Shown here one piece after another: positions 37,362-37,499 of a DNA stretch of 48,995 bases. The notes beneath the pieces were generated by a model that searched no databases, was not told the DNA's origin, and saw only the letters and a program-made list of their open reading frames with translations. This stretch comes from Candidatus Fraserbacteria bacterium (lineage in GTDB: Bacteria; Bipolaricaulota; Bipolaricaulia; RBG-16-55-9), in the NCBI GenBank assembly GCA_037442925.1, contig JBBIPG010000009.1:1-48995 (forward strand), in the 5' to 3' direction. Both the position numbers and the translations under genes were made by a program. How positions within the stretch are numbered: position 1 is the first letter of the stretch; every line of letters starts with the position of its first letter.

Positions 37362-37499
37362 TTAGAGATTCCCTTGACTGATTACGTTTCTGTTGTTGCA
37401 ACAGCAAGTGGTGGTGGTGCAGCAACAACAACTCGCGGCTCCGGCCAATGCCTTGAGGAGGGCCGTTCCCTCCCATTTCTCCTGGAGCTGGACGCGCAT
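37362..37499 (-). CDS. RiPP (TOMM/LAP) precursor peptide, streptolysin-S-like: MRVQLQEKWEGTALLKALAGAASCCCCTTTTCCCNNRNVISQGNL
   Basis: Translated by hand (not in the ORF track). GGGAGGTGA RBS 6 nt before the ATG; 12 contiguous Ser/Cys/Thr; directly upstream of the E1-YcaO-SagB genes. Confidence 0.92.
   Translation of the reverse strand: MRVQLQEKWEGTALLKALAGAASCCCCTTTTCCCNNRNVISQGNL

Follow-up and report, generated by a model that had tools for sequence, protein, structure and literature searches.

An overlooked 45-codon gene of a Candidatus Fraserbacteria bacterium encodes a likely precursor of the linear azole peptide (LAP/TOMM) class

The window analyzed here, 48,995 nucleotides of a Candidatus Fraserbacteria bacterium (contig JBBIPG010000009.1, positions 1–48,995), contains a reading frame of 45 codons, rich in Cys and Thr codons, that lies directly upstream of the only YcaO gene set of the genome. 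The locus raises the question of whether so short a frame is a gene and, if it is, which enzymes act on its product and to which family of modified peptides the product belongs.

The short reading frame and its translation signals

The precursor gene occupies positions 37362–37499 on the minus strand. Its translation is exactly that written in an earlier note on this DNA, which gave no strand, and the plus-strand frame at 37362–37499 is unrelated to it. The 45 residues comprise a predicted leader (Met1–Ala22), a core run of 12 contiguous cyclizable residues (Ser23–Cys34, arranged as Ser, Cys4, Thr4, and Cys3 and thus composed of 1 Ser, 7 Cys, and 4 Thr), and a polar tail (Asn35–Leu45) that contains one extra Ser, Ser41, outside the core run. 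The strong ribosome-binding site that the earlier note had placed over the upstream stop codon is the GGAGG at 37503–37514 (minus strand), which overlaps the TGA of the gene for a LolA-like protein; the minus strand before the precursor reads GAAGGGAGGTGA, followed after about 6 nt (6–9 nt) by the ATG.

The run of 12 Cys, Ser, and Thr residues is unique and the longest in six-frame translations of all 86 contigs of the 2.07-Mb genome, in which runs of 7, 8, 9, 10, and 11 such residues occur 102, 28, 6, 4, and 4 times, respectively. The 238-nt intergenic stretch was subjected to 20,000 dinucleotide shuffles, none of which gave a run of at least 12 and three of which gave a run of at least 9. 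The Cys and Thr codons of the core are mixed synonymous codons (TGT/TGC and ACC/ACT), so that the core is not a perfect repeat expansion. The 45-codon frame is a real precursor gene that has been overlooked. Its neighboring enzymes (P0002 and P0099) are in the protein collection from which the peptide is absent, as would be expected of a gene that gene callers had passed over; a word search of that collection for the peptide gave no candidate, the peptide is absent from the Atlas, and its description as unannotated was accurate.

The peptide matched no family and no homologue. A phmmer search of 1.84 billion representatives returned 0 matches at E 0.001, and the 183 other genomes of the phylum contained no homologue save one chance match, a weak similarity in genome G182 that was set aside because it has an internal stop codon and that genome has no YcaO match. 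The leader or the tail alone, compared with 196 loci, gave a best E value of 0.36. No second copy of the precursor was found in its own genome, and no peptide homologue was found beside a C protein in viral contigs. Recognition of the peptide by the Atlas was low (1611), with a best feature match of only 0.83; this lead, to the FibroRumin Cys-rich RiPPs, was rejected as a likeness of composition only. The low recognition would suit a frame that arose by chance, against which stand the 0 of 20,000 shuffles, the strong ribosome-binding site, and the position of the frame. A chance frame, or else a peptide whose C terminus is adenylylated by an MccB-type neighbor (considered with that protein below), is an extremely improbable account of the locus.

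The sequence was found in one subsurface run, which is possibly its source, and in two hot-spring runs (X2 and X3) that look like a single data set and carry the cluster at about 98–99%. A hot-spring contig with a depth of 3.2 spans positions 37379–37629 and so covers 121 of the 138 nt of the reading frame. The precursor of the hot-spring strain has one change, a synonymous codon for Glu7, and an unchanged core, and 13 of the 19 differences in the cluster genes are synonymous. This conservation lends weak support, at the level of sequence, to the precursor gene.

The operon, its predicted enzymes, and its genomic site

Between 40339 and 32198 every gene is on the minus strand, and neighbors either overlap or are a short distance apart; the order is TPR protein, FtsX permease, LolA-like protein, precursor, stem-loop, C protein, YcaO, dehydrogenase, MFS transporter, and CAAX-type protease, and no frameshift or stop codon interrupts any gene of the cluster. 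A candidate sigma-70 promoter at 40351–40379 (minus strand), recognized by consensus match only, stands at the head of the operon and has a perfect consensus (12 of 12 positions, 17-nt spacer). Right after the precursor stop codon there is a G+C-rich stem-loop of ∼16 pairs (37309–37348, minus strand), with a folding z-score of −3.2 (1 of 200 shuffles was as stable) and a second estimate of −3.6. It has no U tail and is not in the terminator list and was therefore rejected as an intrinsic terminator; in an Rfam search, a tRNA was the sole match and the stem-loop was assigned to no family. It likely stabilizes the precursor mRNA or attenuates read-through, a role for which no usable literature precedent was found; a strong hairpin (z below −2.5) follows the precursor in only 4 of 13 other clusters. 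Two more small hairpins follow the main one at 37268–37302 (minus strand), and in the last of these the AGGAGG ahead of the C gene is paired, which could lower translation of the C protein.

The C protein (36203–37267, minus strand) begins, as the earlier note had read it, at an ATG with an AGGAGG site and has 354 residues. From profile, Foldseek, and motif searches it is predicted to consist of a winged-helix RRE and an E1/ThiF-like domain. It scores 59 bits on TIGR03882, a model of TOMM leader-binding proteins with a cut-off of 36.9, and 65 bits on TIGR03603, under the cut-off of 187.65, and it has two CxxC pairs. A structural model (pLDDT 68.7, from a six-sequence alignment) has at its N terminus three strands and three helices of the winged-helix type and matches MccB, LynD, and TruD (Foldseek E values of 1e-16 to 1e-15) and also PaaA. 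MccB is the top match of the 354-residue protein in both sequence and fold, which favors an adenylyltransferase of that type; however, the E1 domain has no GxGxxG motif, TIGR03882 is passed, and the C gene overlaps the start codon of the YcaO gene. Microcin C precursors end in Asn, and the precursor here does not. The absence of GxGxxG fits a non-catalytic partner, and we predict from sequence and model that the C protein is the leader-binding partner of the YcaO protein.

The D protein, a YcaO cyclodehydratase of 447 residues (34863–36206, minus strand), matches PF02624 (E 5e-67) and scores 289.5 on TIGR03604, with a cut-off of 219.25; its alignment profile matches LynD, TruD, and MusD at E 1e-66. 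Its C-terminal end is PxP, a feature that, in the text available from PMC7136475, marks azoline-forming YcaO proteins. The B protein (34006–34854, minus strand) belongs to the SagB family of FMN dehydrogenases, which would convert azolines to azoles, and scores 160 on TIGR03605 (cut-off 78.4). A motif scan located in it a Lys-Tyr pair that we take to be the motif of SagB-type dehydrogenases, for which no usable literature support was found. The MFS transporter (32814–34106, minus strand; PF07690, E 1e-57) is a candidate exporter or self-resistance pump. The last gene (32198–32836, minus strand; PF02517, E 6e-17) overlaps the MFS stop codon and encodes a CPBP/type II CAAX intramembrane protease, SagE-like and a candidate leader peptidase, with EExxxR, FxxxH, and HxxxN, presumably the motifs of CAAX-type proteases.

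Upstream of the precursor, the minus strand encodes a LolA-like periplasmic protein with an N-terminal hydrophobic segment (37506–38318; PF17131, E 1e-15), an FtsX/MacB-type ABC permease (38311–39513; PF02687 and PF12704), and, as the first gene of the operon, a membrane-anchored TPR protein (39515–40339) that was assigned by profile search and by likeness to TPR-ABC proteins, being 32% identical over 196 residues to a TPR-ABC fusion in TOMM cluster L011. No ABC ATPase is encoded in the operon, and 44 matches lie elsewhere in the genome. The FtsX-LolA-TPR trio is also found in genomes of another family in which YcaO has no match (in 3 of the 7 regions examined), so that it may have been recruited to the operon rather than being dedicated to it. 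FtsX, LolA-like, and TPR proteins form a recurring module without an ATPase in the phylum (in family f5, 15 of 18 genomes have a match to the TPR protein; loci L194, L196, and L199), and a paralogous FtsX-LolA pair is present elsewhere in this genome (G000:C51:715-2741). The related cluster (L011:1125-7505) contains the TPR-ABC ATPase fusion, an ABC-2 permease, and a precursor ending in Ser-Cys6-Ser2, followed by C, D, and B, a GNAT protein, and a further two TPR proteins.

The operon fills a gap of 8,367 bp (window positions 32116–40484) between mgsA/rarA (30794–32116, minus strand, assigned by profile match) on its left and tRNA-Lys(CTT) (40484–40558, plus strand, assigned by tRNA call and Rfam) on its right, the two boundaries of the inserted block by synteny. 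The same two genes are ∼0.1–0.2 kb apart in three of five relatives in the family (loci L168, L170, L171, and L172 were compared); a genome of the same genus has 5.9 kb of other genes, including a DUF433 gene, between them, and the piece read beside mgsA in the fifth relative contains no tRNA. GC3 is 0.53–0.58 in the core genes and 0.62–0.66 in the flanking genes. YcaO was not found in any of the 40 relatives searched, and the YcaO family is over the cut-off in only 2 of 184 phylum genomes, this one included. Because the operon fills a gap that is short in three relatives and its core genes have a lower GC3, it is, on this sequence evidence, horizontally acquired cargo at a variable site.

The second YcaO of the phylum (G073) was rejected as a related cluster because it lacks PxP and has neither a C nor a B neighbor in the 4.5 kb read; it is split over two open reading frames, and its surroundings include an ABC exporter of the peptide type and an IS element (L200:4662-7873). 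Other features of the surroundings are as follows. The insertion is on the 5′ side of the tRNA, which is not the usual integrase pattern. The stretches 42523–44137 and 44658–48982 contain two toxin-antitoxin-like pairs, DUF433/DUF5615 and BrnT/CopG, and after them tRNA-Glu, the gene of a tyrosine integrase, and a DUF3987 gene, which represent a mobile element cut by the end of the contig. At 27923–30718 there is a gene for a 931-residue protein with a peptidase-like N terminus, PD40 propeller repeats, and an Omp85 C terminus, which is kept beside mgsA in genomes G001 and G005.

The lower GC3 of the core genes, as a mark of acquired DNA, and the missing ABC ATPase would also be consistent with a genuine precursor in a cluster that is silent or decaying, or in which few positions are converted or the rings stop at azolines, so that no long polyazole is formed. 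We consider this rather improbable: all genes are intact and have their catalytic motifs, the dehydrogenase is complete, the promoter matches the consensus at 12 of 12 positions, and synonymous changes make up most (13 of 19) of the differences between the strains.

Class assignment and the nearest described families

The locus combines a short precursor rich in Cys, Ser, and Thr with a PxP-ending YcaO, an RRE-E1 partner, and an FMN dehydrogenase. These correspond to the minimal LAP gene set as defined in the available text of PMC7136475 (precursor, E1-like C protein, PxP YcaO D protein, and FMN dehydrogenase B protein), all members of which are present here, the enzymes over curated cut-offs and with their motifs; the difference is that the precursor fits no described family. 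No macrocyclization or dehydratase gene lies at 32198–40339, a block outside which enzymes acting in trans would fall. The precursor is likely a member of the LAP/TOMM class, as judged from sequence, and its operon is intact. The nearest non-self YcaO proteins are at 87% (one relative) and then at 41% or less. Enzyme relatives in the protein collection are at 84–87% (P0003/P0100/P0101) and 45% (P0102); a metagenome scan did not recover the contigs that encode them, and a scan of 10 of the 64 parts of the genome collection returned only relatives at 26–35%. The pathway type is well known, and the cluster would therefore be immediately familiar to a specialist; the novelty lies in the peptide, its palindrome-like Cys4-Thr4-Cys3 core, and the host phylum. 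The available part of PMC7298704 already describes LAP clusters from candidate phyla, and in a search of non-subscription journals no paper on such a cluster in the host phylum was among the matches listed.

The core had invited comparison with streptolysin S (SLS). The start of the SagA core and its later SQG, as given in the earlier note, agree with the entry in Table S2 of Cox et al. (PMC4603692, available in part). Like SLS, listeriolysin S, and BorA, the precursor has a contiguous Cys/Thr run followed by a variable polar tail with SQG and a short leader ending in small residues, and its cluster includes a CAAX protease. It differs from them in having no family HMM match and no Gly before the run, and the cluster differs in its C-D-B order and in the lack of a complete ABC transporter in the operon. 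Since the shared SQG lies in the tail, a part described in passages of PMC4513790 as variable and largely dispensable, it carries little weight.

A true member of the SLS/TOMM cytolysin family would arise by the same chemistry from a synthetase of the cytolysin type and would be lytic. Several observations point in this direction. The defining feature proposed in the available part of PMC4513790 is a contiguous run of at least 10 heterocyclizable residues with a variable tail, and the run here, at 12, agrees with the N-terminal run of 9–10 or more expected of SLS-like cytolysins. The locus has discrete C and D proteins together with a dehydrogenase and a CAAX protease, a set that the accessible text of PMC4603692 ascribes to all cytolysin clusters; of the ABC transporter there is only the FtsX permease, with no ATPase in the operon. 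A Borrelia SLS-like cluster also has an upstream FtsX gene (28% to the one here), and the genuine Borrelia C protein is likewise under the TIGR03603 cut-off (127 of 187.65), on which non-cytolysin C proteins score 35–81 and the C protein here scores 65. An AU test did not reject a clade uniting the YcaO with five cytolysin D proteins (p 0.68); the constrained tree outscored the quick free one by 8.7 log units.

Against this, the precursor has no match to TIGR03602, NF033222, or NF033803, whereas the Borrelia SLS-like control matches two of them strongly (TIGR03602 at E 3e-7, and NF033803). Ala-Ala precedes the run, in place of the Gly by which cytolysins are recognized in the part of PMC4603692 at hand, and Gly20 is three residues upstream. 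The scores of the YcaO with all five cytolysin D proteins, 52–62 bits (21–22%), are the lowest of 42 comparisons; with its neighbors it scores 195–266 bits, and it is at 30–41% to non-cytolysin YcaO proteins. In a mixture-model tree of 27 rows (16 of 43 having been dropped as long branches or near-duplicates), with a cytolysin sample that comprises neither Streptococcus nor Clostridium, a clade with 100/100 support unites the cytolysin D proteins and leaves this YcaO out. The gene order is C-D-B here versus B-C-D in four annotated cytolysin-type loci. Kinship with SagA beyond core style is thus not supported, there being no NCBIfam match, no Gly before the run, and a YcaO outside the cytolysin crown group. 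On present sequence tests the precursor is not a member of the SLS family and its likeness to streptolysin S is one of core style only; we consider membership very unlikely.

The gallolytisin group, predicted and uncharacterized, has the core Cys4-Xaa-Cys4, with Pro, Ala, or Asp as Xaa (Cox et al. 2015, PMC4603692, in the text available). Common to it and the locus here are a discrete cyclodehydratase and two Cys blocks around a spacer. The YcaO is at 32% and 239 bits to that of the gallolytisin-like locus L159, where the precursor is similar to the gallolytisin entry of Streptococcus pseudopneumoniae, and at 225 bits to that of L009, which has a Cys5-Pro-Cys5 core. Two fast trees grouped it with gallolytisin-like and other poly-Cys clusters at SH-like values of 94–96 (FastTree was used for the quick tree of the 161-row YcaO set); the mixture-model tree placed it in a polytomy, and in that tree two gallolytisin-type loci do not form one clade. 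An AU test of a clade of the YcaO with L159 and L161 gave p 0.38. The spacer here is four Thr and not a single Pro, Ala, or Asp, so that the run is unbroken, and the precursor also differs in its 11-residue tail, and the cluster in having an MFS transporter and a CAAX protease instead of an ABC-2 transporter and a regulator. With its Cys4-Thr4-Cys3 core the precursor was not placed in the gallolytisin group, and its core may be read as Cys4-Xaa-Cys4 with a spacer of four Thr in place of the single breaker residue.

Two other families were considered and rejected. The plantazolicin-family locus of Brevibacterium aurantiacum (L080) resembles that described here in a leader that ends in Ala-Ala, a Cys/Thr-rich core, the order C-D-B, and its YcaO (32%, 206 bits). 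The precursor here, in contrast, lacks an N-terminal Arg, has a core without an Ile/Leu-Pro break, and does not match TIGR04218 (E 9e-23 for L080), and the block contains no methyltransferase gene. The predicted helicobactin of Helicobacter pylori (L174) also has 12 contiguous Cys, Ser, or Thr residues and the order precursor-C-D-B, but its core is Ser-rich, its leader is longer, and its YcaO is at only 25% and 116 bits to the query.

The earlier note had called the core distinctive. With respect to the Cys4-Thr4-Cys3 block this stands: none of 196 loci contains a motif of at least two Cys, at least three Thr, and at least two Cys, two supplement files of PMC4603692 have no instance of four core motifs, and the block was found nowhere else in these loci and files. 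With respect to length the claim was overstated, since runs of 12 (Helicobacter, L174), 14 (L089), 15–16 (L149), and 19–23 (L126) residues occur in other clusters and that of 12 is no record. The order precursor-C-D-B with a short Cys-rich reading frame just upstream of C is found in L009, L011, L012, L159, and L161, and in L160 two genes lie between the Cys-rich frame and C. The earlier note had made the standing of the peptide depend on conservation of a Cys/Thr-rich frame beside homologous clusters. One near-identical strain does keep the frame, but the Cys-rich frames in the same slot of distant clusters are unrelated in sequence to the precursor here. A crude filter, some of whose hits are false, detected small Cys/Ser/Thr-rich frames in 26 of 157 loci.

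Several of the loci have features of their own. Precursors that are uncalled or unnamed, with cores of Cys4–5-(Thr/Ser)-Pro-Cys3–5, are widespread (L009/L010/L012, L019, L027, L052, L054, L067, L069, L094, and L127); some have leaders of ∼100 residues, and L069 has tandem copies. A conjugative plasmid of Lactiplantibacillus plantarum carries an unannotated, precursor-like frame of 35 residues with a Cys-rich tail (L161:5682-5789) at the head of a C-D-B-M16 peptidase-ABC cluster. Cores of 14–23 Cys, Ser, and Thr residues are present in L126, L149, L089, and L132, that of L132 consisting of alternating Ser-Cys repeats, and L126 and L149 have several precursors per cluster. The best metagenome matches of the C protein (33%) accompany candidate precursors that are His/Asn-rich and almost free of Cys (L005:1865-2044 and L006:651-818); L005 has three YcaO genes, and the YcaO chemistry of these two loci is possibly different.

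Proposed pathway and role of the product

We are highly confident that the 45-residue peptide is the true substrate of the adjacent cluster. That the enzymes encoded downstream make from it a LAP/TOMM peptide, and that this is a secreted antimicrobial, is by analogy the likely reading of the locus. The sequence comparisons support the earlier proposal, in which the peptide is the precursor acted on by the neighboring E1, YcaO, and SagB proteins, its leader ends near AGAA, and up to seven thiazoles as well as (methyl)oxazoles precede a polar tail. In the proposed pathway, one transcript would start from the promoter at 40379, with the stem-loop keeping the precursor mRNA in excess. The RRE of the 354-residue C protein would bind the leader; YcaO, with ATP, would convert Cys to thiazolines and Thr and Ser to (methyl)oxazolines; and the FMN dehydrogenase would oxidize these rings to azoles, with 20.03 Da lost per ring. 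The CAAX-type protease would then take the leader off around Gly20–Ala22, and the product would be exported by the MFS pump, the FtsX-LolA-TPR module, or both.

The ceiling of this scheme would be seven thiazoles and four methyloxazoles, with one additional oxazole if the leader is cut before Ala22. The carbonyl needed for a ring comes from the residue that precedes it; 12 rings are therefore attainable only with a cut before Ala22, and a cut between Ala22 and Ser23 leaves 11. The calculated mass of the unmodified precursor is 4805.21 Da, from which an azoline would take 18.01 Da; fully aromatic mature cores would have masses of 2219.63 Da (Ala22/Ser23 cut, 11 rings), 2270.64 Da (Ala21/Ala22 cut, 12 rings), and 2341.68 Da (Gly20/Ala21 cut, 12 rings), lower by 20.03 Da if Ser41 were converted as well. 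Conversion of most of the 12-residue run to azoles is probable. Even for SagA the ring state could not be determined, according to the available text of PMC4513790, and full conversion of 11–12 neighboring residues here is accordingly a prediction.

Flat and hydrophobic, the resulting polyazole would carry a polar tail of 11 residues and would most likely act on the membranes of competing microbes. A membrane-active antimicrobial role is suggested by analogy with the contiguous run of SLS and with listeriolysin S, which is reportedly a membrane-permeabilizing bacteriocin. The activity of SLS rests on its contiguous heterocyclizable region (Molloy et al., PMC4513790, in the text available). On this analogy we give an antagonistic role of the product about an even chance. 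The same modified peptide might alternatively bind metal or act as a signal, with the TPR-FtsX-LolA proteins handling or recapturing it. Runs of thiazoles and oxazoles offer many N and S donors, a point of general chemistry that favors metal binding, and homologous TPR proteins accompany the related cluster L011. Nevertheless, the 8.4-kb block contains no TonB-dependent receptor, metal-uptake gene, or metal regulator; it is rare (2 of 184 phylum genomes) and located at a variable cargo site, as competition genes often are; and the MFS pump and the CAAX protease fit export and self-protection. A metal-binding or signaling role thus appears quite unlikely, and a secreted antimicrobial is the reading that we prefer.

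A bolder form of the preferred reading, which we regard as unlikely though worth stating, is that the peptide represents a LAP family of its own, with an unbroken chain of 11–12 aromatic rings (four thiazoles, four methyloxazoles, and three thiazoles), export by the recruited TPR-FtsX-LolA proteins, and, as host, an uncultured anaerobe of hot springs and the subsurface. To our knowledge, such a chain would be longer than any linear polyazole of known structure. If it is formed, the enzymes would be heat-stable and highly processive, and the structure of a poly-Cys TOMM would at last be solvable. The poly-Cys branches of the TOMM class are still unstudied, the term gallolytisin being nearly absent from the literature searched. 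The locus shows how a precursor drops out of protein databases while the enzymes of its cluster stay, and its compact operon with a single precursor, from a host represented in hot-spring data, would be convenient for counting how many adjacent rings a C/D/B synthetase installs and for examining the action of the product.
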